A stretch of 64,000 bases of DNA from Flavobacteriaceae bacterium UBA3159 (lineage in GTDB: Bacteria; Bacteroidota; Bacteroidia; Flavobacteriales; Flavobacteriaceae): assembly GCA_002364535.1 (NCBI GenBank), contig DEYL01000054.1:7309-71308 (forward strand), in the 5' to 3' direction. A program made the translations under genes and the position numbers. Shown here in pieces: positions 23,125 to 48,233 of this stretch. The notes under the pieces are model-generated. The model did no database searches, was not told where the DNA came from, and saw only the letters and a program-made list of their open reading frames with translations. How positions within the stretch are numbered: position 1 is the stretch's first letter; each line of letters begins with the position of its first letter.

Positions 23125-23142
23125 CGTATCGCTGATTTAGAA

Positions 23143-26154: not shown

Positions 26155-26271
26155 ATTAATTATTTTAGATTTATTTAGTTTACTAGTCATTAAATTTAAT
26201 TCCTATTAAAAAAATTATTGTTTTTTTACCGTAAAAATACTGTTTTGAATAGATATAATGTAAAAGAAATT

Positions 26272-26309
26272 AAAAAAAGGGTTTTAAAATTCCTCTAAAC
26301 CCTTTTTTT
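26272..26309 (-). terminator. Rho-independent terminator after the SusD-like gene of pair 1
   Basis: Inverted repeat AAAGGGTTT (26276-26284) / AAACCCTTT (26297-26305), extendable through the flanking A/T runs, with a 12-nt loop. A T-run follows on the minus strand. Confidence 0.6.
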
Positions 26310-26324
26310 AATTTTTTTTTACTA

Positions 26325-27773: not shown

Positions 27774-27784
27774 TTTTATATATT

Positions 27785-30700
27785 TTAAAAAGTTGCTTTT
27801 AATCCTAATGTAACGACTCTGGATAATGGATACCCAGCATAATCAACTCCTGTAGTTAATGTGTTTTCTACTTCAGAGTTGTTTGCCTCCGGATTACCTC
27901 CAGGATATTTAGTTGAATTTAAAACATTATCCGCCGATAAATATAATCTAAGGTTTTTCATACCAATTTGATTGATAGTTTCTTTATCAAAAGTATAACC
28001 CAATGTGATGTTTTTAAGTCTAATATAATCTCCATCATAGAGCCACCTATCAGTAAAATCGGGAAGTCTACCACCTTCTTCTTTAAAGTATGTCCCATTA
28101 CCAGCAGTATAAGCTTCACCTGTTGGAACCCCATTAACTGAGGGAAGTCGTCTAGCACCATTCGCCCAAATTGCCAATTGGTTTCTACCTTGTTGACCTG
28201 CATCAGCATATCTACCAAAGAACCAATAAGCCTTAAAATCTAAAATAGCAGTTGTCAATATTCTTGCATCAAAGTTTTTGTATCTAAAAGTATTTGTAAA
28301 GCCAATTATATAGTCAGGAGTATTGTTTCCTAGTTCAGTTCTATCTCCTATACCTATTACGCCGTCACCGTCTGTATCAGCTATTGCTGGGTTACCAGCA
28401 ACTGCATTTTTTATCAAAGGTCTACTTGGAGACGGATTAGAAATATCAGATTCTGAATATATGCCATCGGTTTTGTACATATAGTAACTATGAAGGGGCC
28501 TTCCAACCATTGTCCTGTGAGTTGGCTGATTTCTAGATGTTCCAATAATTTGATCTATTCCGTAACCTAGTTTAGTTACTTTATTCTCATTATTTGTAAA
28601 ATTCAATGAACTAGACCAAAAGAAATCTCCTTTGGCAATATTATTAGTGTTAAGTTCAAGCTCCCACCCCCAATTTTCAACTTCACCTGAATTTAAAACA
28701 CTTGCTTGAGTTAATCCGGTTACAGCAGGAAGCTCAACTTCTAGTAATACATCTGAGGTTACGTTTTTATAGTAATCAAGTGAACCATAAATTCTGTTCC
28801 CAAAAAAACCAAAGTCTATACCTATACCCTGAGTTGTGGTAGTCTCCCAACTTAGATCGGGATTACTCGCGGTAGAAGGAGCAAATCCATATGCCAATTT
28901 ATTACCAAATGAATAGTTAGCTCCAGAGAGTTGACCAAATGAAGAATAGGCTCCAATTCTGTCGTTACCTGCTTGACCCCAACTTGCCCTAATTTTTAAT
29001 TGGTTAATATTAGGATTATCAATAATGTCATTACTTAACCTCCAGGCAACTGATGCGGCTGGGAATATACCCCATTTATTGTTTTCTCCAAATTTTGAAC
29101 TCCCATCTCTTCTTATCGTGAAATTAAACAAATATTTATCATCGAAATTATAAACAGCTCTTCCAAAATATGATTGCAATGAAGCCTCCATTTCATAATC
29201 GTCCCATTGCCTAAAAGCAGTTGCTGCATTAAATGTTTTAATGTCATCACTACCAAAATCCCATGAATCAAGAAAAGTGTATTCCCAGTCTTGTTCTTCA
29301 GCAGAGGCTCCAACTAAAAAATCTAAATTGTGAGAACCAACCGATAAATTATACGTAGCTGTTAATTGATATAAGAATTTGTTGTCATTTCTGTGTTCGT
29401 TTCTGGCTTCTCTTCTTGCCTTTTTGTTAACCCACATCGGTTTAAACCAATCATAGGTGAAATCCTCAATGTCAAAACCAAACTGACCTTTAATATTAAG
29501 TCCCTCAATTGGCTGAATTGAAATGTAAGATGTAACCAGGGATCTTTTTCTCTTACCAAAATCCTTGATATTTAACATTTGAAGGACTGGATTTGGGTTA
29601 TCAATTAGCCCAAGTGGGTGATTTCTGTGATTAAAATCCACGGGGATAGTTGGATCTGAAACTATAGCTCGCATATAAGCACCCTCTTTTCTCTCAGCCT
29701 CTCTTCTGCCACTCTCTCTCGAAACAGTAGTAGATAAACTTAAACCAGCAGAGACAATATCATTGATGTTGTAATTTCCATTAGCTCTAAAAGAAAACCT
29801 TTCATATTTGGTATTAATTACAAGTCCATCGGTAGCATTATAATTACTCGATATCATAAAATTACCACCCTCAACTCCTTTAAAGATTGAAACCTGATAA
29901 TTTCTTCTGACAGCTTGTTGAGTTATAGCCTCCTGCCAATTTGTATCAGTAATGTCTTCTGGATTTGTATACCACCATCTTCTAGGGTGATATTTGTTAG
30001 ATCTTTCACCTACTGTTGTTCCATCATAAACTCCGCCATTATCATTAATATACCTCAGTGTCTGTCCCCATTCACGATATTCTATGTACTCTGGACCGCT
30101 AAGCATATCAAGAGTATTTCCAGGGGCAATAGCTTCCATCCCTGTGTAAAAATCTAAATCTATTTTGGTCTCACCGGTTTTAGCTTGCTTTGTTTTGATG
30201 ATAACAACACCTCCAGCAGCTCTAGCACCATAAATTGCTCCAGCAGATGCATCTTTTAATACATCAATAGATTCAACGTCACCTATATTTATGTCCCTCA
30301 TACTTTCGACAGGCATGCCATCAATAATGTACAATGGGTTTGAACCACTTGTTATGCTATTTGTACCACGTACCTTAATATTAAACTCAGATCCAGGTAA
30401 ACCCGAGGATTGCTGAGCATAAACCCCAGCGAGCTGACCAGAAAAAGCCTCTCCCAATGTCATTATAGGTCTATCAACAAGACTTTCAGTATTTAGTTTG
30501 GATACTGAGTTTGTTAAATTTGACCTTTTTGTTGTTCCATAACCAGTCAATACAACTTCATCAAGCTCATCTGACCCCAATTCTAAAGAAATATCAAATG
30601 AATCAGCATTGGATACCTCAATTTCTTGATCCATAAATCCAACATACGAAAATGTAATTACATCGGAGTTCGAAACAGATATAGAGTAATTACCATCAAA

Positions 30701-30868
30701 ATCGGTAGACGTACCTATGTCAGATCCTTTGATCACAACATTAACACCTGGCAAAGGCACTCCTTCTTCATCAGAAACATTTCCTGAAATTGTCCTTTGC
30801 GCAAATGTAAAATTGAATGTCAAAAAAAGTAAAATGACCACATAATTGTTAAAACTTTTTCCCTTCAT
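27785..30868 (-). CDS. SusC-like TonB-dependent transporter (pair 1)
   Basis: N-domain ISGNVSDEEGVPLPGVNVVIKGS...TDFDGNYSI, plug VVLTGYGTTKRSNLT and terminal ...GLKATF. No STN domain is visible. Confidence 0.9.
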   Translation of the reverse strand: MKGKSFNNYVVILLFLTFNFTFAQRTISGNVSDEEGVPLPGVNVVIKGSDIGTSTDFDGNYSISVSNSDVITFSYVGFMDQEIEVSNADSFDISLELGSDELDEVVLTGYGTTKRSNLTNSVSKLNTESLVDRPIMTLGEAFSGQLAGVYAQQSSGLPGSEFNIKVRGTNSITSGSNPLYIIDGMPVESMRDINIGDVESIDVLKDASAGAIYGARAAGGVVIIKTKQAKTGETKIDLDFYTGMEAIAPGNTLDMLSGPEYIEYREWGQTLRYINDNGGVYDGTTVGERSNKYHPRRWWYTNPEDITDTNWQEAITQQAVRRNYQVSIFKGVEGGNFMISSNYNATDGLVINTKYERFSFRANGNYNINDIVSAGLSLSTTVSRESGRREAERKEGAYMRAIVSDPTIPVDFNHRNHPLGLIDNPNPVLQMLNIKDFGKRKRSLVTSYISIQPIEGLNIKGQFGFDIEDFTYDWFKPMWVNKKARREARNEHRNDNKFLYQLTATYNLSVGSHNLDFLVGASAEEQDWEYTFLDSWDFGSDDIKTFNAATAFRQWDDYEMEASLQSYFGRAVYNFDDKYLFNFTIRRDGSSKFGENNKWGIFPAASVAWRLSNDIIDNPNINQLKIRASWGQAGNDRIGAYSSFGQLSGANYSFGNKLAYGFAPSTASNPDLSWETTTTQGIGIDFGFFGNRIYGSLDYYKNVTSDVLLEVELPAVTGLTQASVLNSGEVENWGWELELNTNNIAKGDFFWSSSLNFTNNENKVTKLGYGIDQIIGTSRNQPTHRTMVGRPLHSYYMYKTDGIYSESDISNPSPSRPLIKNAVAGNPAIADTDGDGVIGIGDRTELGNNTPDYIIGFTNTFRYKNFDARILTTAILDFKAYWFFGRYADAGQQGRNQLAIWANGARRLPSVNGVPTGEAYTAGNGTYFKEEGGRLPDFTDRWLYDGDYIRLKNITLGYTFDKETINQIGMKNLRLYLSADNVLNSTKYPGGNPEANNSEVENTLTTGVDYAGYPLSRVVTLGLKATF

Positions 30869-37127: not shown

Positions 37128-38579
37128 TCAATTTTCTAAATAAATAAAAGCAGATGTTTTTTTTGGATCACTATCCTCCCATCCATAAAATAAAATGTAA
37201 TCTTTTAATTGTTCTCCAGAGAAATCATTAATAAATTGGATATTATTAAATTTCCATTTACTTTTTTTATTTATAGGTGTTATTTTTTTTGAAAATTCCC
37301 AATTAATGCCATCTATTGAAACCCACTCTTCTATGTCTCCACCGCCATGCTTATCCATGTAGTGTCCATTCATTTGATTAATTTTTGTCCAATTTTTAAG
37401 ATTGTTTTTTTTAAGGAAATTAATTGCATCATCATATTTAGTCCTTGTTACTTTGTCACCAACTATTAAATATGAAAAATATTTGTTGTCTTTATATAAA
37501 ATTCCCCCATTATTCCATTGGTGATTAGAAGTTCTAATAGGAGATTTTACCCATTCTCCATTTAGAAATTGAACAAAATAATAATTAAAATCATCAATTG
37601 ATTTCTCGGTAATTAAATGAAGAAATGCTGGGTTACCATTTTTATCTATTATTATTTCAGGTGGAATTCCAGCCCCTCTACCCTGAGTATTCCAAACAAT
37701 ACAATCCTTATTAGCCGAGTCAAGGTCGATTGGAAGAATAAGTTGTTTTCCCCTAAAATTATATGCTTTTTGGGTTTTTAAATCAACTCTTAAATAATAC
37801 AAATTGTATTTAAAGTCGTTAGTTACAATTGAATTATATCTTTCATTAAAGTATCTGCCAGGATTATTTTCCTTATTATCATCATATGATATAAATGCAA
37901 TGTGAATAAACTTTCTATCATGGCTTAATCTAATAGAGTGATAAGATGACCATTCAAACATTCCTCCTATATCTAGATTAGTAGTAGTATTTTCAACATA
38001 GGCCCAGCTTTGAGTTTCTTCTTGTTTTATGGCATATTTCCAATGCCCTGTATGACCTCCTTCCCTGAAATAAACAAGGTCACCATAAGCTGATTTTGAA
38101 TATGATGGGTAAGATACTTTTGTGTCTAAAAAGGATTTCTTCACCCAATCATCTTTAGACCTTCCAATTGAACTTTCATTCTTTGAAATCAAATGATAAC
38201 CTGAAGAGTTATGAGTTCCATACACAACATTAATTTTCATTTTATTGTCTAGCCAAATTATAGGGCAATGATGATGGTCAGATGATGAATTATTATCTAA
38301 ACTAAAGGTGGTCCCTAATTTTTTAGTTTTTACATTAAATGAAGTAATCATTGGTATTGTTTTAGGCTTTTCATCCAAGTTAACTCTATTACCATTGTAA
38401 ACCAGATAAAGGGTATCGCCTAATTTTAGTACTTGAGGCCTTTGTCTCCTATCATATAACATTTTTAAATTCCCCCCTTGACCGAAAGAATATATCGAAT
38501 TTAAGCTCTCAACATTTTCTTGGGACCATAAATGAGATGTTATTATTAAAAAGAATATTGTTATAAATTTTAAAGCCAT
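37128..38579 (-). CDS. Secreted protein of unknown function, possibly a BNR_4-type beta-propeller
   Basis: Has a signal peptide. The His-rich block SSDHHHCPIIWLDNKMKINVVYGTHNS and repeated short beta-strand-like segments recall, from memory, the BNR_4 (PF15892) family. The gene is visibly more AT-rich than both neighbours. Confidence 0.4.
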   Translation of the reverse strand: MALKFITIFFLIITSHLWSQENVESLNSIYSFGQGGNLKMLYDRRQRPQVLKLGDTLYLVYNGNRVNLDEKPKTIPMITSFNVKTKKLGTTFSLDNNSSSDHHHCPIIWLDNKMKINVVYGTHNSSGYHLISKNESSIGRSKDDWVKKSFLDTKVSYPSYSKSAYGDLVYFREGGHTGHWKYAIKQEETQSWAYVENTTTNLDIGGMFEWSSYHSIRLSHDRKFIHIAFISYDDNKENNPGRYFNERYNSIVTNDFKYNLYYLRVDLKTQKAYNFRGKQLILPIDLDSANKDCIVWNTQGRGAGIPPEIIIDKNGNPAFLHLITEKSIDDFNYYFVQFLNGEWVKSPIRTSNHQWNNGGILYKDNKYFSYLIVGDKVTRTKYDDAINFLKKNNLKNWTKINQMNGHYMDKHGGGDIEEWVSIDGINWEFSKKITPINKKSKWKFNNIQFINDFSGEQLKDYILFYGWEDSDPKKTSAFIYLEN

Positions 38580-40149: not shown

Positions 40150-40191
40150 ATTTTAGTTTTTTTGAATAGGATATCGAATTTATTTTTTTGT

Positions 40192-40199
40192 TACATTTG
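40192..40199 (+). promoter_or_regulatory. Candidate -7 promoter box (TAnnTTTG) for the DUF1080-led operon
   Basis: TACATTTG lies 35 nt upstream of the preferred ATG at 40234. A TTTG at 40161-40164 is the only upstream -33-like element and sits at non-canonical spacing. Confidence 0.35.
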
Positions 40200-40214
40200 C
40201 GTGCACGCACACAA
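40198..40214. promoter_or_regulatory. 12-bp perfect palindrome TGCGTGCACGCA overlapping the shared motif GTGCACGCACACAA; candidate operator in an 84-bp divergent region
   Basis: Read directly. TGCGTGCACGCA (40198-40209) equals its own reverse complement. GTGCACGCACACAA (40201-40214) recurs with one mismatch at 45175-45188. Confidence 0.45.
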
Positions 40215-40233
40215 TCAACTAACAAATAATATT

Positions 40234-41628
40234 ATGAAAATCAAATTTAACTTTTTTAGTCAACTGCCCATGCTAACCATGGCGTTATTTTTATGTTCAA
40301 ATATGATCGCCCAATCAGATTGGAAATCACTTTTTAACGGTAAGGATATGTCGGGTTGGGAGGTGAAAAATGGAACTGCTAAATATCACATTACCAATGA
40401 AGCCATCGTAGGTACTTCACGAACCGGAACCCCAAATACTTTTTTGTGTACAAAAAAGATGTACGGTGATTTTATCTTGGAGTTGGAGGTGTTAGTTACT
40501 CCTGGGCTGAATTCCGGTATTCAGTTTCGCTCAAACTCATCAAAAGAATATAAGAATGGTCGTGTTCACGGTTATCAATCTGAGCTGGATACAAGTAGAA
40601 GAGCGTGGTCTGCTGGAATTTATGATGAAGGACGAAGAGGTTGGTTGTATCCACTTACAATAAACACAAAGGGTGGTGCTGCCTTCAACAATGGCGGCTG
40701 GAACAAGGTGAGAATTGAGGCCATTGGAAATTCAATCAAAACTTTTATGAATGGAGTTCAATGTGCCAATCTTGTGGACGATATGACCGACAAAGGCTTT
40801 ATTGCCTTGCAGGTGCATTCCATCAGAGAAAAAGGTCAAGAGGGAAAAACCATCCAGTGGAAAAACATCAAAATTGTAACTGAAAACCTAGATCGGTACA
40901 GAACAAAAAATCAACCCCAAGCTAGACAAATTAGTTATTTGACCAATACACTCACCCAAGAAGAGAAGCGAAAAGGTTGGAGATTGCTTTGGGATGGAAA
41001 AACTAAAAATGGTTGGAAAGGATCTAAATCTGATTACTTTCCAAAACACGGGATCGAAATAGTTAATGGAACCATTCACTTTCTGAAACACGATAAAACA
41101 AAAGATTTCAAAAGATCTGGATCTATTGTTACCAAAGAAAGATTTGATAACTTTGAGTTAGAGGTTGATTTTATGGTTAAAAAAGGAGGTAATAGTGGTA
41201 TCAAATATTTTGTTGATGCATTAACTTATGGGGATGGTAGGAACATTGGATTTGAATTTCAAATTCTAGATGATGATCACCCAGATCATAATGGTGGTGT
41301 TGGTGGAAACAGAACTATCGGTTCACTCTATGACCTAATAGCCGCTGAAAACCTATCTGAATCAAATCGAGATGATATTAGAGCTAATAGTAATGGTAAG
41401 TGGAACAGAGCAAGAGTTGTTGTAAATGGTGGAAAAGTTCAACACTGGATAAACAACATCAAAGTTGTAGAATATGACCGTTTTTCTCAATCGATGAAAA
41501 ATCTGATTAAAAAAAGCAAATACGTAAACCACCAAGGCTTTGGAATGGGAAGCAGTGGTAGGATATTGCTTCAAGATCACAGTCCCGGAGACGTTAAGTT
41601 TAAAAACATAAAAATTCGTGAGTTCTAG
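40234..41628 (+). CDS. Tandem DUF1080 (3-keto-disaccharide hydrolase family, concanavalin-like fold) protein, secreted
   Basis: Two repeats share the same architecture. Repeat 1: DWKSLFNGKDMSGWEV...FILELEVLV...NSGIQFRS...FIALQVHS...IQWKNIKI. Repeat 2: GWRLLWDGKTKNGWKG...FELEVDFMV...NSGIKYFV...ILLQDH...VKFKNIKI. I prefer the start at 40234 (MKIKFNFFSQLPMLTMALFLCSNMIAQ) over 40162. Confidence 0.8.
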   Translation: MKIKFNFFSQLPMLTMALFLCSNMIAQSDWKSLFNGKDMSGWEVKNGTAKYHITNEAIVGTSRTGTPNTFLCTKKMYGDFILELEVLVTPGLNSGIQFRSNSSKEYKNGRVHGYQSELDTSRRAWSAGIYDEGRRGWLYPLTINTKGGAAFNNGGWNKVRIEAIGNSIKTFMNGVQCANLVDDMTDKGFIALQVHSIREKGQEGKTIQWKNIKIVTENLDRYRTKNQPQARQISYLTNTLTQEEKRKGWRLLWDGKTKNGWKGSKSDYFPKHGIEIVNGTIHFLKHDKTKDFKRSGSIVTKERFDNFELEVDFMVKKGGNSGIKYFVDALTYGDGRNIGFEFQILDDDHPDHNGGVGGNRTIGSLYDLIAAENLSESNRDDIRANSNGKWNRARVVVNGGKVQHWINNIKVVEYDRFSQSMKNLIKKSKYVNHQGFGMGSSGRILLQDHSPGDVKFKNIKIREF

Positions 41629-43174
41629 GATTTTAATTTCTTTAATTCTTCTAAGCAGTTTATCAAATTGTAATGAAACACCGCTTCCGAAAAGTCCTAC
41701 CAATGTCATTCTGATTCTTGTTGATGACATGGGCTTTTCGGACTTGGGTGCCTATGGCAGTGAGGTAGCAACCCCTAATATCGATCGTCTGGCTTTGGAT
41801 GGTGTAAGGTTTACCAATGCCTATAATACATCTAAATGCTTTCCCTCCAGGGCTGCCCTGCTCACGGGATTGTATTCCCAGCAAATGGGGTACCACGAAA
41901 GTTTTAGGCAGCCTATGCGTAATGCGATTACACTGGGAGAGTTGTTTCAATCGTCGGGTTACACTACCCTTTGGTCGGGTAAACACCATAGCACAGAAAA
42001 CCCTGTGGACAGAGGTTTTGATCATTACAGTGGACTGTTAGATGGCGCAGCCAATCATTTTAACCCGGGAATTAAAAGAGAGGGTGAGGGACAACCGGCC
42101 CAAAAAGGACTTAAAAATACACCCGTTACCTACCGAAATTGGGTAATCGAAGGCGAAGTTTACAATCCATATACACCCAAATCCAAAGAATTCTATACCA
42201 CCGATATTTTTACAAATTATGCTCTTGATTGGATGGATCAAATCAAACACGAAAAACCTTTTTTCCTTTACCTGTCCTACACCGCTCCTCATGACCCCCT
42301 CATGGCTTGGCCAAAAGACATTGAAAAGTATAATGACCGTTATAAAGAGGGATATGAAGCAATAAGAAAAAAACGATTCAAAAAACAAAAACTATTGGGC
42401 GTGCTTCCCAAAAATGCAGTATTATCAAAATCTGAACACTCCGATTGGGACAGCCTGACCGCAGCAGAAAAAGCCGAGGAAAGCAGAACCATGGCCGTAT
42501 ATGCTGCCATGATTGATCGTTTGGATCAGAACATTGGCAGAATACTGAAAAAGCTAAAACAGCAGGGAAAGCTTAACAACACGCTTATTATTTTTACCTC
42601 TGATAATGGAGGATCGAGCGAGGTAGTCAATATCCCGGAAGGAACCGGAGAAATTGGCACCTCTACCAACTGGAAGTCCTTGGGAAAAAACTGGGCTAAT
42701 GTGAGTAATACACCTTACAGAGAATATAAAAACTGGAGTCATGAAGGGGGTATAAAAACCCCATTGATCGCCTATTGGCCAGAAAAAATAAAAAATAAAG
42801 GCTTTATATCCCACAAACCTGTACATTTTATTGATTTCCTTCCTACCCTACAGGAACTGATAGGGGCAAGCTATCCTCAGCATTTAAATGGTTATACAAT
42901 TTTTCCCAGCCCGGGAAAAAGTTTTTTGCCTCAATTATTGGGGGACTCATCCTTTAAAAGAGATGCCCCAATATTTTGGCAATGGAGACATGGAAAAGCA
43001 GTAAGGGATGGGAGTTGGAAATTAGTAGCACATAAGGAAGTCTGGGAGTTGTTCAATTTGGAAACTGACCCCGTTGAGGAAATCAACCTTATTGACAAGG
43101 ATAAAGAAAAAGCAGCACAACTAAAATCGCTCTATAAAGATTGGGCCGCCCAGTTTAAAATTACCAAAAGATGA
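41618..43174 (+). CDS. S1 sulfatase (Cys-type), lipoprotein; GTG start
   Basis: GTG at 41618 overlaps the upstream stop by 11 nt, and no in-frame ATG precedes the catalytic domain. Lipobox LSNC. Motifs seen: ILILVDDMGFSD, NTSKCFPSRAALLTG, FTSDNGG. Confidence 0.85.
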   Translation: MSSRILISLILLSSLSNCNETPLPKSPTNVILILVDDMGFSDLGAYGSEVATPNIDRLALDGVRFTNAYNTSKCFPSRAALLTGLYSQQMGYHESFRQPMRNAITLGELFQSSGYTTLWSGKHHSTENPVDRGFDHYSGLLDGAANHFNPGIKREGEGQPAQKGLKNTPVTYRNWVIEGEVYNPYTPKSKEFYTTDIFTNYALDWMDQIKHEKPFFLYLSYTAPHDPLMAWPKDIEKYNDRYKEGYEAIRKKRFKKQKLLGVLPKNAVLSKSEHSDWDSLTAAEKAEESRTMAVYAAMIDRLDQNIGRILKKLKQQGKLNNTLIIFTSDNGGSSEVVNIPEGTGEIGTSTNWKSLGKNWANVSNTPYREYKNWSHEGGIKTPLIAYWPEKIKNKGFISHKPVHFIDFLPTLQELIGASYPQHLNGYTIFPSPGKSFLPQLLGDSSFKRDAPIFWQWRHGKAVRDGSWKLVAHKEVWELFNLETDPVEEINLIDKDKEKAAQLKSLYKDWAAQFKITKR

Positions 43175-45090
43175 TTTTGATTTTTGATATGATGCGCCAA
43201 CCTAGCCTAATGTTTTTTCTTTTTTTTAACTGCTCACTCTTTTTGGGCTGTTCCAACCCCACGGAAGGAGAAAAAAAACCCCCAAATATTTTGTGGATTA
43301 CCGTGGAAGACATCAGCCCCGATCTGGGTTGCTATGGAGACCCATTGGCCCATACACCAACTTTGGATGCCCTGGCCTCAAAAGGATTTCGTTACAATCA
43401 TGCCATTGCCAATGCACCCGTTTGTGCACCTGCACGAAACGCCATAATCACAGGAATGTATCCCTCATCTCTGGGTACACTTCACATGCGTTCTTTTTCC
43501 AATACCATGAAAAGCTCGGGAAGAATTCCAACAGAAATCAAACTCTACCCAGAGGTGTTGAGAAGTGCTGGATATTACTGCACCAACAACAACAAAGAGG
43601 ACTATAATTTTAATTTGAAAAGAGAAATCTGGGATGAATCCAGCAAAACTGCTCATTGGAAAAAAAGACCCAATAAAAACACCCCTTTCTTTTCAATTTT
43701 CAATTTGACCATGACGCATGAAAGCTGCATCAACAATCAAGAAAAACACGAACGACTAACCCAAGACCTTCCTGAGCACTTGAGAACAGTTCCCGAAAAA
43801 ATAGCAGTTCCCCCCTACTATCCAGACACGCCCGAAGTAAGAAGATTACTGACACGTCATTATGACAATATTGCCACAATGGATGCTGTAGTGGAAAAAC
43901 TACTCCAAGAACTCGAAGAGTCCGGGGAAAGTAAAAACACCATAGTCTTTTTTTATTCCGACCACGGTACAGGTCTACCTAGACACAAAAGATGGCTGTT
44001 TGACACAGGGGTAAAAGTACCTTTTATCGTTTATATTCCGGAACAATACAAAGAGTTGTATCCCGCTGAACCGGGAAGCGAAGTAGATCAATTAATCAGT
44101 TTTATCGACTTGGCCCCAACCGCCATTGAGCTGGCAGGTGCTCAAATTCCAAAGAGCATGCAAGGGCAAGCTTTTTTGGGAAAAAATCTAAAACTGGAAA
44201 GAGATTATGTATTCTTGGCCAGAGGCAGAATGGATGAACGCTATGACATCCAAAGAGGGGTCAGAAGTAAAAGATTTAAATACCTCCGTTACTACGAACC
44301 CAAAAAATCATTTATACAATACATGAATACCCCCGAAGGAGGCCCTTTGATGACAGAACTAAGAAAGGCTGAAAAAGAAGGGGCGCTAAAGCCAGAAGGA
44401 CAGCAACTCGTTGCGTCCACAAAACCCGCTGAATCCTTGTTTGATTTGAGTAAAGATCCAATGGAATTTAATGACTTAGCCAATGATCCAAGAATGAAAG
44501 AAGAGTTGGCAAGGCTTAGAGCCGTTCACGATCAATGGATGAAACAAGTACTGGACGTTGGACTAATTCCAGAGGCCATAATGAGAAACTGGGAAGAAAA
44601 GAACGATCAATCCATTTACAAATGGATTAGGACACAAGAAGATTTTTATGATGAATTGTTGTTGATATCCTCAACAGCAAATGAAAATATATTGTTTAAA
44701 GGGTTAAATCACCCCAATGAAGCCATTCGATATTGGGCAGGGCAAGGGCTTTACAATCTGGATAAAAAGATTAAAAAGGCCACTATCGACCGTTTAAACC
44801 AAAAACTCAATGATTCCGTTATCAATGTAAGTATTAGTGCTGCTCGGGCATTACTCAAGCATAAATCCCCCTCCAAAGAATTGATGAAAGTATTATCCAG
44901 CGGATTAAAAGCAGAAAACGAGTGGACGCGATTACAAACAGCTTTGGTGTTGGATGATTTTCAGAATGCGCTTAAAGTTTTGGAAAAACAATCACAAAAT
45001 CTTATTGATTCCGACACAAACAAATATGTTGTTAGGGTTCTAAATCATGGGCTAAACGAGCTTAACGGAACTTCGAGTAAGGTCAGGTAA
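43171..45090 (+). CDS. S1 sulfatase (Cys-type) with a C-terminal HEAT/ARM-like repeat extension
   Basis: ATGA overlap with the upstream stop. Lipobox FLGC. Motifs seen: LWITVEDISPDLG, IANAPVCAPARNAIITG, FYSDHGT. The last ~150 aa carry HEAT-like units (HPNEAIRYWAGQGL, DSVINVSISAARALLKH, AENEWTRLQTALVLDD). Confidence 0.85.
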   Translation: MILIFDMMRQPSLMFFLFFNCSLFLGCSNPTEGEKKPPNILWITVEDISPDLGCYGDPLAHTPTLDALASKGFRYNHAIANAPVCAPARNAIITGMYPSSLGTLHMRSFSNTMKSSGRIPTEIKLYPEVLRSAGYYCTNNNKEDYNFNLKREIWDESSKTAHWKKRPNKNTPFFSIFNLTMTHESCINNQEKHERLTQDLPEHLRTVPEKIAVPPYYPDTPEVRRLLTRHYDNIATMDAVVEKLLQELEESGESKNTIVFFYSDHGTGLPRHKRWLFDTGVKVPFIVYIPEQYKELYPAEPGSEVDQLISFIDLAPTAIELAGAQIPKSMQGQAFLGKNLKLERDYVFLARGRMDERYDIQRGVRSKRFKYLRYYEPKKSFIQYMNTPEGGPLMTELRKAEKEGALKPEGQQLVASTKPAESLFDLSKDPMEFNDLANDPRMKEELARLRAVHDQWMKQVLDVGLIPEAIMRNWEEKNDQSIYKWIRTQEDFYDELLLISSTANENILFKGLNHPNEAIRYWAGQGLYNLDKKIKKATIDRLNQKLNDSVINVSISAARALLKHKSPSKELMKVLSSGLKAENEWTRLQTALVLDDFQNALKVLEKQSQNLIDSDTNKYVVRVLNHGLNELNGTSSKVR

Positions 45091-45155
45091 TCTTATTTAT
45101 TGAAATATTAGGGTATTTAATAACTTAATTAGGTAGCAATATTCAAAAAAAATTA

Positions 45156-45163
45156 TATTTTTG
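45156..45163 (+). promoter_or_regulatory. Candidate -7 promoter box (TAnnTTTG) inside the 128-bp gap ahead of the Tat oxidoreductase
   Basis: TATTTTTG lies 56 nt upstream of the ATG at 45219. Confidence 0.35.
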
Positions 45164-45174
45164 GTATGATACAT

Positions 45175-45188
45175 GTGTACGCACACAA
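45175..45188 (+). promoter_or_regulatory. Second copy of the GTGyACGCACACAA motif
   Basis: GTGTACGCACACAA matches 40201-40214 at 13 of 14 positions. Both copies are preceded by ACAT and followed by TCAACTAA within 20 nt. Confidence 0.45.
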
Positions 45189-45218
45189 AAAGTATATTCA
45201 ACTAAAATTAATACAATA

Positions 45219-46601
45219 ATGGATTTAAACAGAAGGAAATTTATCAAAGATGCCTCTCTTGTTTCGGCTGGGGTAATTGCCGGGGTAAGTGGTGTTAGCG
45301 CTGCTAGCACTGCGATGAGTGCCCAGAGTTACAGAAGAATTATTGGCTCCAATGATCGTCTTAACGTTGGAATCGTTGGGTTTTCAGGTCGAGCCAAAGG
45401 TTCGCTTATTCCCGCTTTTCAACAACATACAAAACAACAAAACTGCCAGATTGTAGGTGTTTCTGACATTTGGAACAGAAGGAGAGACGTGGGAAAAGCG
45501 TTTCTGGAAAAAACAACCGGCAACAAAATCGAAACATGGAGAAATAATGAGGAAATGTATGACAAAAATCAAATTGACGCTGTCATCATTTCGACTGCTG
45601 ATTTCCAGCACGCCCTTCATACCGTTCAGGCTGCCAATGCCAAAAAAGACGTTTATGTAGAAAAGCCTTTTGCCGAAACCATGGAAGATGCCAGGTTAGG
45701 AAAGAAAGCTGCCAATGATGCGGGTATTATTCTTCAAGTAGGATCACAACGCAGAAGTGGGAAAAACTACCATGCTGCCGACAAGTATATGAAATCGGGA
45801 GCTTTTGGAGATGTGGTTATGGTCGAGATGACTTGGAACGTAAACCAACCCGGGAGATGGAGAGTATATCCCAATAAAGTAAAAGACATCAAGGAATCTG
45901 ATGTGGATTGGAAAAGATACCTAATGAACCGTCCTTACCAAAAATGGGATCCAAGAAAATACTTAGAATATCGTTTGTTCTGGCCATTATCCTCGGGTAT
46001 CCCTGGACAGTGGATGGCGCACCAGATTGATACTGTTCACTGGTTTTCAGGCCTAGAGCATCCAAGAAGTGTAGCTGCGAATGGTGGTATCTACCTTTGG
46101 AAAGATGGTCGAACCAACTTTGATACCATGACCGCGGTATTCGATTACGGTCCCTTGGATGATACTAACTCCGGATTTCAAGTGGTCTATTCTTCCCGCT
46201 TTACCAATTCTGCAGGAGGAACCAAAGAAATTTACTACTCCAATGGAGGTGAACTAAACATGAAGACCAACAAAGTAACACCCAACGGTGGACTTACAGA
46301 ACGTTATTCTAGTGGAATGAACATGAAACCCAATCAATTGAAAGAATTTTCATTGTCTGAAATCGATACTAAGGTGGTTACTTCTGCCAATACTGGAGTG
46401 GATAACATGACTTCTAATCACATGCTCAACTGGCTGGAATGCGTCCGTTCCAGAGCAAAAACCAATGCACCGGTTGAAGCTGGGTATAACCACTCAATTG
46501 CCAACATCATGACTACAGCATCTATGAGGACTGGGCTTAAAGCCACTTTCGATGAAAAAAATCAAGAAGTGTTGGCTGGTGGAAAAGTATTCAAATACTA
46601 A
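45219..46601 (+). CDS. Tat-exported Gfo/Idh/MocA-family oxidoreductase
   Basis: MDLNRRKFIKDASLVSAGVIAGVSGVSA has an RRxFxK twin-arginine signal. The Rossmann motif is VGIVGFSGRAK and YVEKPF is the family EKP block. Confidence 0.85.
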   Translation: MDLNRRKFIKDASLVSAGVIAGVSGVSAASTAMSAQSYRRIIGSNDRLNVGIVGFSGRAKGSLIPAFQQHTKQQNCQIVGVSDIWNRRRDVGKAFLEKTTGNKIETWRNNEEMYDKNQIDAVIISTADFQHALHTVQAANAKKDVYVEKPFAETMEDARLGKKAANDAGIILQVGSQRRSGKNYHAADKYMKSGAFGDVVMVEMTWNVNQPGRWRVYPNKVKDIKESDVDWKRYLMNRPYQKWDPRKYLEYRLFWPLSSGIPGQWMAHQIDTVHWFSGLEHPRSVAANGGIYLWKDGRTNFDTMTAVFDYGPLDDTNSGFQVVYSSRFTNSAGGTKEIYYSNGGELNMKTNKVTPNGGLTERYSSGMNMKPNQLKEFSLSEIDTKVVTSANTGVDNMTSNHMLNWLECVRSRAKTNAPVEAGYNHSIANIMTTASMRTGLKATFDEKNQEVLAGGKVFKY

Positions 46602-46610
46602 TACAGTACT

Positions 46611-48233
46611 ATGATTAGGGCTTTTACTTTAATAATAATCCTAAGCGTCGTAATGAATTCATGCGAAGGACAACCCAAAACTACCGAAGCGGAATATGCT
46701 TCGGTAGTTTTTGTAAACGATACAGCAAACCAAAAAGTTGACGTACAACTTAATGGTACGCTATTTACCAGTTACCATTATCAAGCTTCACTTCCCAAAC
46801 CCGTTCTTTTTCCTTTGGTTACCGCCAGTGGCAAAACACTCACAAGAGGTTTCCCTATTGACCCTCAACCGGGAGAACGTGTTGACCACCCCCATCATAT
46901 GGGTCATTGGTTTAACTATGGAGACGTTAATGGATTGGACTTCTGGAACAACTCTAATGCCATTCCAAAAGAAAAATTAGAAGACTACGGTAAGATTGTA
47001 CACAGCGAAATTGTTAAAATAAATCAAGAACAAGGCAGTCTTACTACTAAAAGTAGTTGGCAAAGTACTGCAGGTGAATCCATGCTGGATGAAACTACCG
47101 TTTTTGAATTCTCGCAAGAGGGCAATACCAGAATTATTGATAGGTACACCACACTTACCGCACTTCAAGACATTTCATTTAAAGACAATAAAGAAGGAGT
47201 TTTTGGCGTTCGTGTAACCCGTGCTATGGAATTACCCGCCAAAAAACCAGCAATTTTTGTCGATGCACAAGGCAATCCGACAGAAGTAAAGGTATTGGAC
47301 AATACTGGTGTTAACGGGAACTACCTCAGCAGTGAAGGATTGGAAGGAAATGACGTTTGGGGAACCCGGGCCGAATGGGTAAAACTCTACAGCACAATAA
47401 AGGAAGAACCCGTTTCCATCACCATCATGGACAACCCCAATAATGTGGGCTATCCCACCTATTGGCATGCCAGAGACTACGGTCTTTTTTCGGCCAACCC
47501 CTTAGGTCAAGAAGTTTTTTCAAAAGGGAAAGAAGCTCTGAATTTTTCTTTACAAAATGGAGAGTCAGTAACGTTTCATTATAGAATGTTGGTACATAAC
47601 GGATCAATTCTTGATCCAAAAGACATTAGTAAATTTTCGTTAGTTGATAATAAATATAAGACCTATTTCGACGGATCAGATCTTTCTCAATGGGTTATAA
47701 AAACTAGAAGAGGAGAGGCTGATGGTGTTATTGTAAAGGAAATTGATCTGAATGACAACATATGGTGGTCTGTTGAAGATAATCTTTTGAAAGTAAAAAA
47801 TGGCCCAGATGAAATGGGCTCAACACTGTGGACCAAGAATTCGTTCGAAAACTTTAGAGTTCGTCTTAATTTTAAATTCATCGAAGGTAATATAGACTCT
47901 GGAATTTTTATGAGAGGAAGTGACCATTTAAATCCTCAAATTCAAATAGGCGTATCAGGTTCATTAAAAAGAGATATGACTTGTTCTCCCTACATTCCAA
48001 AAAAAGGGTATCCCAAAGAAGCTACTAAAGTTAAATCACTCCTCAAAATGAACGACTGGAATAACATGGTTGCTGAAGCTATAGGTGACCGCTACAGAGT
48101 ATGGTTAAATGGGGAACAAGTGATGGATTACAGTATGGAAGATGCAAATCTTAGTGGCCCCGTTGGTATCCAGCTTCATAGCGGAAGAGAGATGGAAATC
48201 TGGTATAAATCAATCGATATTGCCAGTTTCTAA
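46611..48233 (+). CDS. Fusion protein: N-terminal DUF6807 (PmoA-like) domain plus C-terminal DUF1080 domain, lipoprotein
   Basis: Lipobox MNSC. HPHHMGHWFNYGDVNGLDFWN is the characteristic DUF6807 block. The last ~190 aa (YFDGSDLSQWV...FRVRLNFKF...DSGIFMRG...GIQLHSGREMEIWYKSIDI) follow the DUF1080 pattern seen in 40234-41628. Confidence 0.7.
   Translation: MIRAFTLIIILSVVMNSCEGQPKTTEAEYASVVFVNDTANQKVDVQLNGTLFTSYHYQASLPKPVLFPLVTASGKTLTRGFPIDPQPGERVDHPHHMGHWFNYGDVNGLDFWNNSNAIPKEKLEDYGKIVHSEIVKINQEQGSLTTKSSWQSTAGESMLDETTVFEFSQEGNTRIIDRYTTLTALQDISFKDNKEGVFGVRVTRAMELPAKKPAIFVDAQGNPTEVKVLDNTGVNGNYLSSEGLEGNDVWGTRAEWVKLYSTIKEEPVSITIMDNPNNVGYPTYWHARDYGLFSANPLGQEVFSKGKEALNFSLQNGESVTFHYRMLVHNGSILDPKDISKFSLVDNKYKTYFDGSDLSQWVIKTRRGEADGVIVKEIDLNDNIWWSVEDNLLKVKNGPDEMGSTLWTKNSFENFRVRLNFKFIEGNIDSGIFMRGSDHLNPQIQIGVSGSLKRDMTCSPYIPKKGYPKEATKVKSLLKMNDWNNMVAEAIGDRYRVWLNGEQVMDYSMEDANLSGPVGIQLHSGREMEIWYKSIDIASF

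Follow-up and report, generated by a model that had tools for sequence, protein, structure and literature searches.

A candidate oxidative glycoside-cleavage cassette with two sulfatases and a DUF6807 protein in a marine flavobacterium

Why would a Tat-exported Gfo/Idh/MocA oxidoreductase (Gfo), DUF1080 domains, and a DUF6807 domain be encoded together with two sulfatases? Oxidation, elimination, and hydration of glycosides have been described for Bacteroides thetaiotaomicron BT2156-BT2160 and Alistipes AL1-AL5 (Liu 2021 PMC8121099; Nasseri 2024 10.1101/2024.03.25.586180). An earlier note proposed an oxidize-then-eliminate route for this locus, and its Gfo and DUF1080 proteins are homologous to those of the proven pathway, but that route is already established in these two studies and is not new. 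On balance, we consider it probable that the locus encodes an oxidative (non-Koshland) route of periplasmic glycoside cleavage. It would be a cassette of the BT2156-2160/Alistipes AL type that, in this Flavobacteriaceae lineage, was suited to a sulfated glycan, probably an ulvan-like one, when two sulfatases were inserted, with DUF6807 as a further conserved component working with this Gfo subfamily. This reading builds on observed domain identities, export signals, synteny, fusions, subfamily specificity, and a promoter motif. What distinguishes it from the known pathway would be the lineage-specific sulfatase insertion, DUF6807 as a recurrent partner, and an operator-like motif at two promoters.

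Gene order and promoters

The window, the whole 64-kb stretch of marine flavobacterial DNA that we analyzed, contains five co-directional ORFs on the + strand running from 40162/40234 to 48233. The ORF listing and a Pfam profile search bear out the five genes and domain calls of the earlier note, with every call above its curated Pfam cut-off save HEAT_2 at the C terminus of the second sulfatase, which falls just under (27.2 versus 27.7 bits). The features are as follows.

40192..40214, + strand: promoter P1, Bacteroidota -7 box TACATTTG (40192-40199), then operator-like motif GTGCACGCACACAA (40201-40214)
40234..41628, + strand: exported tandem DUF1080 protein, 464 aa (PF06439 twice, E 6e-82)
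41618..43174, + strand: S1_4-like formylglycine sulfatase with lipoprotein-type signal (PF00884, E 1e-57; CFPSR)
43171..45090, + strand: S1_8-like formylglycine sulfatase with C-terminal HEAT-like domain (PF00884, E 4e-39; CAPAR)
45156..45188, + strand: promoter P2, -7 box TATTTTTG (45156-45163), then operator-like motif GTGTACGCACACAA (45175-45188)
45219..46601, + strand: Tat-exported Gfo/Idh/MocA oxidoreductase, 460 aa (PF01408, GFO_IDH_MocA, E 5e-18; PF22725)
46611..47645, + strand: lipoprotein signal MIRAFTLIIILSVVMNSC, then DUF6807 domain (PF14100, E 2e-77, aa 42-340)
47655..48233, + strand: third DUF1080 domain, fused to DUF6807 (PF06439, E 1e-27, aa 349-537)

The last two entries form a single gene, one ORF from 46611 to 48233. 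The first gene had been started at 40150/40162, and its reading frame does extend back to TTG 40162; the most likely start, however, is ATG 40234, which gives a signal peptide beginning MKIKFNFF and a 464-aa protein as in relatives. Reading the junctions from the sequence, we recovered the 11-nt overlap of GTG 41618 with the end of the first gene, which relatives call identically, as well as the 128-bp gap before the Gfo gene and the 9-bp gap before the DUF6807-DUF1080 gene. The ATGA overlap at 43171-43174 is likewise present, but it is uncertain as a start, since relatives use ATG 43189, 18 nt downstream.

Relatives at 78-96% identity keep the identical five-gene order, so the arrangement is not a product of chance. 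A core cassette of tandem DUF1080, Gfo, DUF6807, and short DUF1080, in that order and free of sulfatases, adjoins LacI and SusC/D genes in Maribacter, Arenibacter, and Aurantibacter, where the redox genes are contiguous. Judged from this synteny, the two sulfatases are an insertion specific to the present lineage, with no counterpart in the relatives' conserved cassette.

The operator-like motif GTGCACGCACACAA of P1 lies 20 nt upstream of ATG 40234, and its P2 equivalent GTGTACGCACACAA precedes the ATG of the Gfo gene by 30 nt. With two mismatches allowed, the motif occurs twice in 64 kb, at P1 and P2 only, against a chance expectation of 0.22. It is kept at P1 in orthologous intergenic regions and at P2 in loci L001 and L011-L013. 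This predicted operator, common to both module promoters, is new relative to the described pathway and, with the conserved synteny, sustains the view that the five genes form one module.

The oxidoreductase and the DUF1080 domains

The Gfo protein begins with the Tat signal MDLNRRKFIKD, as first noted, and the twin-arginine motif NRRKFIK recurs in 51 of 54 orthologues. As in the BT and AL loci, a Tat-exported Gfo of about 450-490 aa sits beside an exported DUF1080 protein in a Bacteroidota sugar locus with its own regulation. Also common to this protein and the BT/AL dehydrogenase are EKP, the Gln that contacts NAD, the Trp, and the catalytic His (AL3 Gln161, Trp195, and His252); EKP and the His are present in all 54 orthologues. 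Its best PDB matches are 8tdf/8tdh (E 1e-14), and its best NCBIfam match is the BT_2158_fam glycoside 3-dehydrogenase, at 95 bits against a 750-bit cut-off, followed by iolG. The position of Asp248, which binds sugar in AL3, is occupied by Gln or Asn in 53 of the 54 orthologues. These features point to a subfamily distinct from BT2158/AL3 and associated with DUF6807. Because the protein falls outside the BT2158 family and Asp248 is replaced, it may differ in substrate and in the carbon that it oxidizes, which could be C3 or C1.

The tandem DUF1080 protein matches PDB 4jqt over its full length (E 3e-143). Its C-terminal domain, which also matches 3osd/8rr2/8tda at about 1e-22, keeps N134, E164, Q166, Y190, K245, Q273, and H275, and thus at least seven of eight conserved BT2157 active-site residues, and by these residues it resembles the BT2157 3-keto-glycoside lyase/hydratase. 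The N-terminal domain belongs to a divergent DUF1080 subtype, and the third domain to a short, 3imm-like subtype (PDB matches 4jqt/3imm/3s5q), so that each of the module's three DUF1080 domains represents a subtype of its own, where the BT and AL loci have a single domain. The BT2157 residue pattern is missing from two of the three. In Maribacter and relatives, the third domain is a separate 201-aa gene, and split DUF6807 and short-DUF1080 genes occur in loci L007, L009, L014-L018, L022, and L036; the DUF6807-DUF1080 protein is, by this comparison, a fusion of two neighboring genes. DUF1080 is functionally heterogeneous, an endo-xanthanase having been reported within the family.

Further differences from the BT and AL loci lie in what accompanies these proteins. 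The cassette includes neither the xylose-isomerase-like TIM-barrel lyase (BT1/AL1) nor an adjacent cytosolic second dehydrogenase, and it has two sulfatases inside the operon as well as DUF6807, for which published descriptions of the BT and AL clusters give no counterpart.

DUF6807 and its association with the oxidoreductase

At 50% identity, DUF6807 resolves into about 3,200 clusters, and in agreement with the earlier note, the literature that could be searched assigns it no biochemistry. Most members carry signal or lipobox sequences. About 20 polar residues are conserved family-wide across sequences only 29-51% identical; conserved positions include D92, H93, H95, D110, D192, K194, R201, D274, H275, R288, Y290, and N296 along with five Trp, in a DH-x-H / D / K / R / DH / R-x-Y constellation. 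On these grounds, DUF6807 looks like an exported enzyme. The closest Foldseek match to its AF2 model (pLDDT 86, pTM 0.88) is galactose mutarotase (E 3e-6, TM 0.36-0.44), suggesting a distant resemblance to the mutarotase-like β-supersandwich. Proteins of the galactose mutarotase/aldose 1-epimerase superfamily bind sugars and, like DUF6807, are all-β with about 300-350 aa. In contrast to mutarotases, DUF6807 proteins are exported or lipoproteins, and their conserved pattern (DH-x-H and so on) differs from the mutarotase signature; profile comparison with E. coli GalM gave no sequence similarity (hhalign probability 0.1%).

A same-strand Gfo gene is adjacent to DUF6807 in 53 of 80 genome loci. 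Conversely, DUF6807 adjoins Gfo genes of at least 53% identity in 19 of 29 informative loci, and Gfo genes of at most 33% identity in none of 28 (15 with both flanks informative). The linkage recurs in several phyla. The commonest co-located families are DUF1080 (32/80) and the xylose-isomerase-like TIM barrel (16/80 loci; 12 of 85 immediate flanking genes), which is the BT1/AL1 lyase family. Of the 80 loci, 20 have Gfo but neither of these two, and Gfo, DUF1080, and the TIM barrel are all missing from 17. Independent fusions join DUF6807 to each of the three DUF1080 subtypes, with either domain first, and elsewhere to a 7-bladed lactonase (P0139), an SMP-30/gluconolactonase (P0252), an MBL-fold hydrolase (P0145), a cupredoxin, and a redoxin. 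It appears, from these neighborhoods, to be a regular and so far unstudied component of oxidative cassettes.

The lactonase, MBL-fold, cupredoxin, and redoxin fusions are unexplained by a 3-keto scheme, and several of them bear on a different reading, which we regard as unlikely. Here, Gfo would act at C1, turning the reducing ends of free sugars or of oligosaccharides into aldonolactones as another carbonyl is reduced, DUF6807 would be a periplasmic mutarotase supplying the preferred anomer, lactonases would act downstream, and DUF1080 would have a different or loosely connected role. Zymomonas mobilis glucose-fructose oxidoreductase (GFOR) and the Caulobacter aldose-aldose oxidoreductase are periplasmic Gfo enzymes that bind NADP tightly; they share with the present protein Tat export of a cofactor-loaded Gfo and a redox-neutral periplasmic ping-pong logic, and they oxidize C1 of free aldoses. 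The mutarotase fold matches, the P0139, P0252, and P0145 fusions, the replaced Asp248, the Gfo matches to these two enzymes, and locus L093, where the neighbor of a DUF6807-cupredoxin fusion is a propeller with weak similarity to glucose/sorbosone dehydrogenase, all favor C1 oxidation. However, the similarity of Gfo to these enzymes is weak (5a02, E 4e-7; Z. mobilis GFOR, E 5e-4), neither has a DUF1080 or DUF6807 link, and the closest curated family and structure are those of glycoside 3-dehydrogenase. Among the neighbors and fusion partners of DUF6807, DUF1080 and the TIM-barrel lyase family predominate by a wide margin, lactonase families are absent from its recurrent immediate neighbors, and profile annotation of the window found no lactonase gene in or beside the module; the lack of profile similarity to GalM also counts against a mutarotase.

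Less probable still is a non-catalytic role, in which DUF6807 and the divergent DUF1080 domains would serve as SGBP-like or lectin-like glycan-binding lipoproteins that only present substrate, with a mechanistically uncoupled Gfo acting on monosaccharides or inositols. The folds of both, concanavalin-like jelly roll and β-supersandwich, are common among carbohydrate-binding modules, the fifth gene product is a lipoprotein, the catalytic pattern of BT2157 does not appear in two of the three DUF1080 domains, and iolG is the second-best Gfo match. The family-wide polar residues of DUF6807, including DH-x-H, are nevertheless typical of an active site and not of a binding surface. DUF6807 is, moreover, repeatedly fused to enzyme domains. 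In several phyla it sits tightly and specifically beside a single Gfo subfamily, often at loci that have no SusC/D (present at only 18 of 80).

Sulfatases, reaction order, and PUL context

Both sulfatases carry the C-x-P-x-R formylglycine motif. The first best matches PDB 7all (E 9e-81) and the Pseudomonas arylsulfatase 1hdh, and the second S1_8A/B/C (9bb9/9bbd/9bba, E 1e-71 to 1e-63), which suggests S1_4 and S1_8, respectively, as their closest relatives. S1_4 members remove sulfate from 3S-Gal or 6S-Gal (10.1101/2020.11.20.392076), and characterized S1_8 enzymes are 2-O-sulfatases and an ulvan xylose sulfatase.

For the preferred reading, oxidative glycoside cleavage, we infer each chemical step, the oxidation site, the sulfatase specificities, and the DUF6807 reaction. 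The S1_8-like (2-O) and S1_4-like (3-O or 6-O) sulfatases would hydrolytically desulfate the non-reducing-end sugar of imported oligosaccharides, freeing the 2- and 3-hydroxyls. Gfo, exported folded with tightly bound NAD(P)+, would then oxidize a ring hydroxyl, most likely at C3. A DUF1080 domain, for which the tandem protein's BT2157-like C-terminal domain is the best candidate, would abstract the C2 proton, expel the glycosidic oxygen, and hydrate the ensuing 2-hydroxy-3-keto-glycal, after which reduced Gfo would return the hydride to the 3-keto sugar and regenerate NAD+. DUF6807 would partner this Gfo subfamily directly. Judged by its mutarotase-like fold and by the Asp, His, and Trp residues that it conserves, it may be an enzyme whose substrate is the keto-sugar intermediate, for example an extra lyase/hydratase, or an anomer or ring-form isomerase holding the 3-keto sugar in a form that Gfo can reduce.

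The two apparently intact formylglycine sulfatases favor ordinary desulfation by hydrolysis, ahead of the redox steps, and the exclusion of O3-modified sugars as substrates (Nasseri 2024, 10.1101/2024.03.25.586180) provides a rationale for desulfation before oxidation. The sulfatases most likely unmask O2 and O3 hydroxyls for glycoside cleavage by the redox enzymes. The earlier note's sulfatase link does not hold as a conserved property of the module, a sulfatase lying within 10 kb of only 12 of the 80 DUF6807 loci. Its proposal that a keto group makes a β-positioned sulfate ester leave, in a non-hydrolytic system for sulfatase-resistant sulfates, is chemically plausible by the same E1cB logic as for a glycosidic oxygen, and the module sits in a sulfatase-rich PUL, but it is unsupported and very improbable given two intact sulfatases in the operon, a redox cassette without a sulfatase in most lineages (Maribacter-type cassettes having none), and a 3-O-sulfate that would itself block oxidation (Nasseri 2024, 10.1101/2024.03.25.586180).

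The surrounding PUL looks ulvan-like from its gene content. The ulvan literature that we examined contains no description of a Tat-Gfo/DUF1080/DUF6807 module in ulvan degradation. In common with ulvan PULs such as that of Formosa agariphila (PL24/25/28/40, GH78, GH88/105, GH39, S1_7/S1_8/S1_25), the window encodes GH78, GH88, GH39, an S1_8-like sulfatase, many other sulfatases, and two SusC/D pairs, and a neighboring gene models as a PL25/PL24/PL42/GH145-like propeller. It also encodes GH92 and a PL15-like lyase, which are atypical of ulvan PULs.

The five-gene module and the known oxidative pathway

The module consists of five genes on the + strand, which we checked against an ORF list and by a Pfam scan, reading the junctions from the sequence.

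Genes of the module
40162/40234-41628, +, gene 1: two PF06439 (DUF1080) domains (E 6e-82)
41618-43174, +, gene 2: sulfatase (PF00884, E 1e-57)
43171-45090, +, gene 3: sulfatase with a HEAT-like C-terminus (PF00884, E 4e-39)
45219-46601, +, gene 4: Gfo/Idh/MocA oxidoreductase, here the Gfo enzyme (PF01408, E 5e-18), N-terminus MDLNRRKFIKD
46611-48233, +, gene 5: DUF6807 at aa 42-340 (PF14100, E 2e-77) fused to a third DUF1080 domain at aa 349-537 (PF06439, E 1e-27)

All structural statements made on these genes in an earlier note, which had worked from the sequence without database searches, were borne out by the ORF list and scan: each of the domains it named matched its HMM (PF06439, PF00884, PF01408, PF14100), and the junctions it described were seen on direct reading. 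Gene 2 begins at a GTG (41618) that overlaps gene 1 by 11 nt, genes 2 and 3 overlap by ATGA (43171-43174), and gaps of 128 bp and 9 bp lie 5' of the Gfo gene and of gene 5, respectively. For gene 1, the start is almost certainly ATG 40234, which gives the signal peptide MKIKFNFFSQLPMLTMALFLCSNMIAQ and a product of 464 aa, matching its relatives; the start called in relatives for gene 3, the second sulfatase, is the ATG 18 nt 3' of 43171. Export signals can be read in all five products, of the Tat type for the Gfo enzyme and of the Sec or lipoprotein type for the other four, and the translations of both sulfatases contain the formylglycine motif C-x-P-x-R (CFPSR and CAPAR).

The earlier note interpreted the module as an oxidise-then-eliminate pathway. 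This interpretation is partly supported, and such chemistry is already established for BT2156-BT2160 of Bacteroides thetaiotaomicron and AL1-AL5 of Alistipes (Liu et al. 2021; Nasseri et al. 2024). The DUF1080 protein BT2157 is active on 3-keto-trehalose, and the Tat-exported Gfo enzyme BT2158 was proposed as the periplasmic oxidase (Liu et al. 2021, PMC8121099). Oxidation at C3 is carried out by AL3/BT3 with tightly bound NAD, the β-lyases AL1/BT1 are xylose-isomerase-like TIM barrels, and the dehydrogenase is recycled from its reduced state by reduction of a 3-keto sugar (Nasseri et al. 2024, 10.1101/2024.03.25.586180).

An NCBIfam model now exists for the glycoside 3-dehydrogenase of this pathway (BT_2158_fam, NF058561), and it is the top NCBIfam family for the window Gfo enzyme at 95.2 bits (E 3e-27). 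Since the curated equivalog cut-off is 750 bits, the enzyme is, as judged by its sequence, a relative of BT_2158_fam and not a member. Its nearest solved relatives in a PDB search are 8tdf and 8tdh (E 1e-14). We compared residues with AL3 by printed alignment, in which AL3 numbering minus 29 gives the 8tdf chain index. The EKP motif, Gln161, Trp195, and the catalytic His252 are retained and Gln replaces Asp248, with Arg192 offset by one position in the alignment to 8tdf and Tyr349 beyond the aligned stretch. The EKP motif and catalytic histidine are invariant in all 54 Gfo genes that adjoin DUF6807 genes, and 51 of the 54 encode a twin-arginine (RRxF) motif; in the window protein (MDLNRRKFIKD), a hydrophobic stretch comes after it. 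At the position of Asp248, 36 of these genes encode Gln, 17 Asn, and one Asp, and their median identity to the window Gfo enzyme is 61% (n = 54). The DUF6807-adjacent Gfo enzymes form a distinct, coherent subfamily. GH109 is another Tat-exported, NAD-dependent glycosidase of the Gfo type; we dropped this assignment for the window enzyme because no GH109 structure was found among its PDB matches at E ≤ 1e-3.

The three PF06439 domains of the module, whose signal peptides were read from the sequence, differ in how closely they resemble BT2157. The two-domain structure 4jqt is a full-length homologue of gene 1 (PDB search, E 3e-143), and the nearest solved relatives of the gene 1 C-domain are 3osd, 8rr2, 8tda, and 9fbe. 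By printed alignment (BT2157 numbering minus 25 gives the 3osd chain index), this C-domain retains seven of the eight conserved channel residues of BT2157 (Asn134, Glu164, Gln166, Tyr190, Lys245, Gln273, and His275), the eighth, Glu103, falling in an ambiguously aligned loop. The N-domain lacks the Lys245 insertion and has the Glu/Gln pair in swapped order (YQSELD). The DUF1080 domain of gene 5 belongs to a short, 3imm-like subtype, with Asp in place of Asn, the motif QIQ, and the Gln-x-His retained.

On balance, we lean toward viewing the module as a variant of the oxidative pathway already known for glycoside cleavage. The variant would be marked by a distinct Tat-Gfo subfamily, three DUF1080 subtypes, and a tightly linked DUF6807, to which the lineage of the window alone adds two inserted sulfatases and a duplicated promoter/operator.

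Conservation of the cassette and partners of DUF6807

In relatives at 78 to 96% identity, which come from marine metagenomes and Flavobacteriaceae metagenome-assembled genomes, the gene order of the window is unchanged and takes in both sulfatases as well as, downstream, the genes for the phosphatase, esterase, and GH78. The next clade (57-64% identity) comprises Maribacter, Arenibacter, and Aurantibacter, where the cassette reads [tandem DUF1080, 457 aa]-[Gfo, 452 aa]-[DUF6807, 359 aa]-[DUF1080, 201 aa]-LacI beside a SusC/D pair, with zero sulfatases within it. The order [tandem DUF1080]-[Gfo]-[DUF6807] is also contiguous in four loci from more distant Bacteroidota (L025, L059, L071, and L079). 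Because the cassette is uninterrupted in both the sister clade and these distant loci, we conclude that the two sulfatases are an insertion specific to the lineage of the window. Likewise, DUF6807 and the last DUF1080 are separate neighboring genes in Maribacter-type cassettes, which marks the gene 5 product as a fusion of adjacent genes. Maribacter algarum has the same fusion as the window, and in Portibacter lacus the domain order is reversed (DUF1080-DUF6807) and a Gfo gene follows.

To place DUF6807 more broadly, we searched 1.84 billion representatives exhaustively and obtained 3175 clusters at E ≤ 1e-3 and 1948 at E ≤ 1e-10. The window domain itself (aa 42-340) scores 261 bits against a 27-bit gathering cut-off for PF14100, formerly "PmoA". 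Most clusters consist of single-domain proteins of 340 to 370 aa; most members have an N-terminal signal, with a lipobox in those from Flavobacteriia. An exact-sequence look-up of the window protein returned no record, and its nearest relatives are 96% identical (search representative P0001; locus L137).

We then annotated 80 genome loci with DUF6807 from Bacteroidota, Acidobacteriota, Gemmatimonadota, Ignavibacteria, and Calditrichota, using probes derived from the window. A Gfo gene adjoins DUF6807 on the same strand in 53 of the 80. DUF1080 occurs anywhere in the locus in 32 and is adjoining or fused in 17, SusC/D genes are found in 18, and a sulfatase lies within 10 kb in 12. The earlier note had asked for a neighborhood survey of DUF6807, Tat-exported Gfo enzymes, DUF1080, and sulfatases; with only 12 of 80 loci, sulfatases are not a conserved part of the association. 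Xylose-isomerase-like TIM barrels outnumber every other Pfam family among the other 85 genes that directly flank DUF6807 (12 genes), and LacI regulators come second (8).

Gfo, DUF1080, and TIM-barrel genes within 4 kb of DUF6807 in the 80 loci
Gfo and DUF1080: 23
Gfo only: 20
None of the three: 17
Gfo and TIM barrel: 11
DUF1080 only: 4
Gfo, DUF1080, and TIM barrel: 3
TIM barrel only: 2

As this cross-tabulation indicates, the two families that supply lyases in the known pathway, DUF1080 and the TIM barrel, are mostly alternatives to one another, whereas Gfo is the constant partner of DUF6807. We also ran the test in reverse on metagenome contigs. DUF6807 adjoins Gfo genes of at least 53% identity to the window enzyme in 19 of 29 informative loci, and it adjoins Gfo genes of at most 33% identity in none of 28 (15 of them with both flanks informative). 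The idea that DUF6807 stands in for a missing TIM-barrel lyase is weakened, since TIM barrels co-occur with it in 16 of the 80 loci and, for the most part, it is DUF1080 rather than DUF6807 with which they alternate.

Gene fusions tie DUF6807 to DUF1080 as well. All three DUF1080 subtypes of the window occur in fusions with DUF6807 among the search representatives: the short subtype, C-terminal in the window protein, P0038, and P0039 and N-terminal in P0050; the BT2157-like subtype in P0125; and the subtype of the gene 1 N-domain singly in P0148 and in tandem in P0245. By the Rosetta-stone argument, fusions with all three subtypes provide strong evidence for a functional link between the two families.

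Predicted fold and candidate roles of DUF6807

Searches of the PDB by sequence or profile yielded no solved DUF6807 structure, with matches confined to the DUF1080 part of the fusion. An AlphaFold model of the domain is confident (pLDDT 86, pTM 0.88) and almost all β. Foldseek aligned it to galactose mutarotases (E 3e-6), GH36 N-domains, and OpgD/MdoD at TM scores of 0.36 to 0.44; for GalM, despite the Foldseek E value of 3e-6, the TM score is 0.36 to 0.39 and the RMSD exceeds 14 Å. The model thus suggests a galactose-mutarotase-like supersandwich, an assignment that applies to fold class only. Alignment to Escherichia coli GalM by hhalign gave a probability of 0.1%, and no mutarotases were among the matches of a PDB profile search. 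We did not adopt DUF6807 as an aldose 1-epimerase/galactose mutarotase, as neither a profile relationship nor the catalytic His/His/Glu signature was found.

An alignment of 100 sequences that are 29 to 51% identical to the window protein reveals conserved polar residues (R79, D92, H93, H95, N107, D110, D192, K194, R201, D274, H275, N278, R288, Y290, and N296) and conserved tryptophans (W112, W150, W250, W256, and W285). A conserved Asp/His cluster combined with several tryptophans would fit a carbohydrate-active, possibly metal-dependent enzyme. Candidate roles would be that of a lyase or hydratase acting on the keto-sugar, or an anomer or ring isomerization that feeds cofactor recycling.

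Beyond this, we tentatively envisage DUF6807 as a new periplasmic, probably metal-dependent enzyme class of mutarotase fold that, with its dedicated Tat-Gfo enzyme, could form the two-protein core of a widespread, redox-neutral, non-Koshland system. The DUF1080 and TIM-barrel lyases would be exchangeable, and in the window the core would have been recruited, together with its own sulfatases and a regulator site, for sulfated algal glycan linkages that glycoside hydrolases handle poorly. Oxidative glycan breakdown was characterized only in 2021 to 2024, in gut Bacteroidota. Among marine and soil bacteria, a related cassette is common in the Bacteroidota, Acidobacteriota, Gemmatimonadota, Ignavibacteria, and Calditrichota. 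It can be joined by sulfatases in a polysaccharide utilization locus (PUL) for sulfated algal polysaccharides, and it has DUF6807, with about 3200 sequence clusters, as its extra conserved part. Assigning a reaction to DUF6807 would allow thousands of genes to be annotated and could account for the turnover of the cofactor that periplasmic Gfo enzymes bind tightly, or for the cleavage of additional linkage types. In models of ulvan-type glycan degradation, and so for marine carbon cycling, it would add a non-hydrolytic step. The main value lies in a concrete, testable set of partners for a family whose several thousand proteins lack annotation.

The main rival holds that the dehydrogenase is GFOR-like and oxidizes C1 to make aldonolactones, with DUF6807 as a periplasmic mutarotase. 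We consider it improbable, and it is kept alive by fusions of DUF6807 to lactonases, which have no explanation in the 3-keto scheme: a 7-bladed lactonase in P0139 and an SMP-30/gluconolactonase in P0252. The lactonase-type propellers of these two proteins are unrelated to each other. Other representatives fuse DUF6807 to an MBL-fold hydrolase (P0145, followed by a Gfo gene), a redoxin (P0265), a peptidase S51 domain (P0218), or a cupredoxin (P0250). The operon of the last (locus L093) also has an Nramp metal transporter gene, a TIM-barrel gene, two DUF1080 genes, and a gene for a propeller with weak similarity to glucose/sorbosone dehydrogenase (PQQ sugar dehydrogenases).

The literature on DUF6807, PF14100, or "PmoA family protein" assigns no function, in agreement with the earlier note, which had stated that the domain lacks assigned biochemistry; it yielded a naming mention and one incidental neighbor gene. 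The latter is a PF14100 gene on a Lac+ Verrucomicrobia cosmid that enables S. meliloti to grow on lactose. It lies in a putative operon, with the gene for a membrane-bound dehydrogenase/HEAT/cytochrome c protein on one side and that for a DUF377 protein on the other, and the study reports both products as unconventional β-galactosidases (Cheng et al. 2017, PMC5342196). Oxidative glycoside cleavage may be hinted at here as well.

Sulfatases, putative regulatory sites, and the surrounding PUL

The gene 2 sulfatase is closest in structure searches to 7all and the Pseudomonas arylsulfatase 1hdh (E 1e-80), and these nearest solved structures place it putatively near subfamily S1_4. From the data statement of 10.1101/2020.11.20.392076, 7all would be the S1_4 enzyme BT4683; Bacteroides S1_4 members remove 3S-Gal or 6S-Gal and are heterogeneous in specificity (10.1101/2020.11.20.392076). 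Gene 3 is probably S1_8-like, again as assigned from its nearest solved structures, the S1_8A/B/C sulfatases 9bb9, 9bbd, and 9bba (E 1e-71). These are exo-galactose-2-sulfatases of a λ-carrageenan locus (10.1101/2025.01.09.632246), and an S1_8 enzyme desulfates xylose-2-sulfate in ulvan fragments (PMC8360166). The C-terminal ~170 aa of the gene 3 product form a HEAT-repeat-like extension (HEAT_2, 27.2 bits, just under the cut-off), and the solved S1_8C sulfatase, at 651 aa, is similar in length to the whole gene 3 product.

The characterized dehydrogenase contacts OH-2 and OH-3 and does not oxidize O3-modified sugars (Nasseri et al., 10.1101/2024.03.25.586180). For this reason, the economical view is that the inserted sulfatases would unmask the hydroxyls that the redox enzymes need. 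The alternative in the earlier note, in which the keto group assists elimination of sulfate, found no comparative support and is hard to square with two intact formylglycine-type, hydrolytic sulfatases inside the operon.

Bacteroidota-type -7 boxes (TAnnTTTG) occur in the intergenic regions 5' of gene 1 (TACATTTG, 40192-40199) and 5' of the Gfo gene (TATTTTTG, 45156-45163), each with the motif GTG(C/T)ACGCACACAA just downstream (40201-40214 and 45175-45188). This operator-like motif is partly palindromic (TGTGT-ACGC-ACACA), has exactly two copies in the 64 kb with up to two mismatches allowed (0.22 expected by chance), and is kept in the orthologous intergenic regions of relatives. The paired -7 box and shared motif at both regions suggest two transcription units, one made up of gene 1 and the sulfatases, the other of Gfo and DUF6807-DUF1080, and suggest that one dedicated regulator, distinct from that of the rest of the PUL, would control both. 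No regulator gene is visible near the module. In Maribacter, a LacI gene lies directly 3' of the cassette, and a tandem classic LacI-type operator, TTAACGTTAACGTTAA, lies 5' of the tandem DUF1080 gene (locus L004, 7100-7125; locus L007, 5160-5185). A scan for sigma-70 promoters and intrinsic terminators gave no enrichment, as expected for Bacteroidota.

Two SusC/SusD pairs (21244-30868) with CAZymes alongside identify the surroundings as a Bacteroidota PUL, and housekeeping genes begin at ~53.7 kb. Pfam scans of the large ORFs gave thirteen sulfatases in total in the window, together with a GH88-DUF1961 fusion, GH92, GH39, a GH78-like rhamnosidase, a SASA esterase, a purple acid phosphatase, an enolase-superfamily protein, and a cytosolic Gfo enzyme.

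Features of the PUL outside the module
3567-6167, -, DUF4962 and heparinase II/III lyase, PL15-like; nearest PDB entries 6lja/6ljl (E 3e-101), which we take to be an exolytic heparinase, and oligoalginate lyases
7519-9351, -, GH88 unsaturated glucuronyl hydrolase fused to DUF1961
13782-14810, -, cytosolic Gfo/Idh/MocA enzyme, among sulfatases
17201-18418, -, enolase-superfamily protein, among sulfatases
37128-38579, -, BNR_4-type ORF between two sulfatases, just upstream of the module; sole large ORF without a Pfam match

The relatives of the last of these are named BNR_4 or "BNR-4 repeat" proteins, and some are fused to esterase domains (P0289 and P0296). A search of the PDB by sequence gave no relative. 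Its AlphaFold (AF2) model is a 7-bladed propeller (pLDDT 87, pTM 0.86) whose top structural matches are PL25 ulvan lyase (E 2e-18, TM 0.65-0.71), with PL42 rhamnose-α-1,4-glucuronate lyase, GH145, and PL24 ulvan lyase also matching. All four act on rhamnose-glucuronate linkages, and the modeled protein may represent an uncharacterized lyase or hydrolase family for rhamnose-uronate linkages.

The DUF4962/heparinase II/III protein and GH88 point to a uronate-containing substrate. Together, the propeller matches, GH78, GH88, GH39, and the S1_8-like sulfatase suggest an ulvan-like sulfated rhamno-glucuronan; ulvan units contain GlcA or IdoA, Xyl or Xyl2S, and Rha3S (PMC8360166). The GH92 and PL15-like lyase of the window are atypical for ulvan loci. 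The cytosolic Gfo enzyme (top NCBIfam match iolG, under its cut-off) and the enolase-superfamily protein could form a cytoplasmic oxidative sugar pathway or, by analogy, reduce keto-sugars like BT2159/AL4. The GH88-DUF1961 protein is another fusion of an enzyme to a domain of unknown function within the same PUL.
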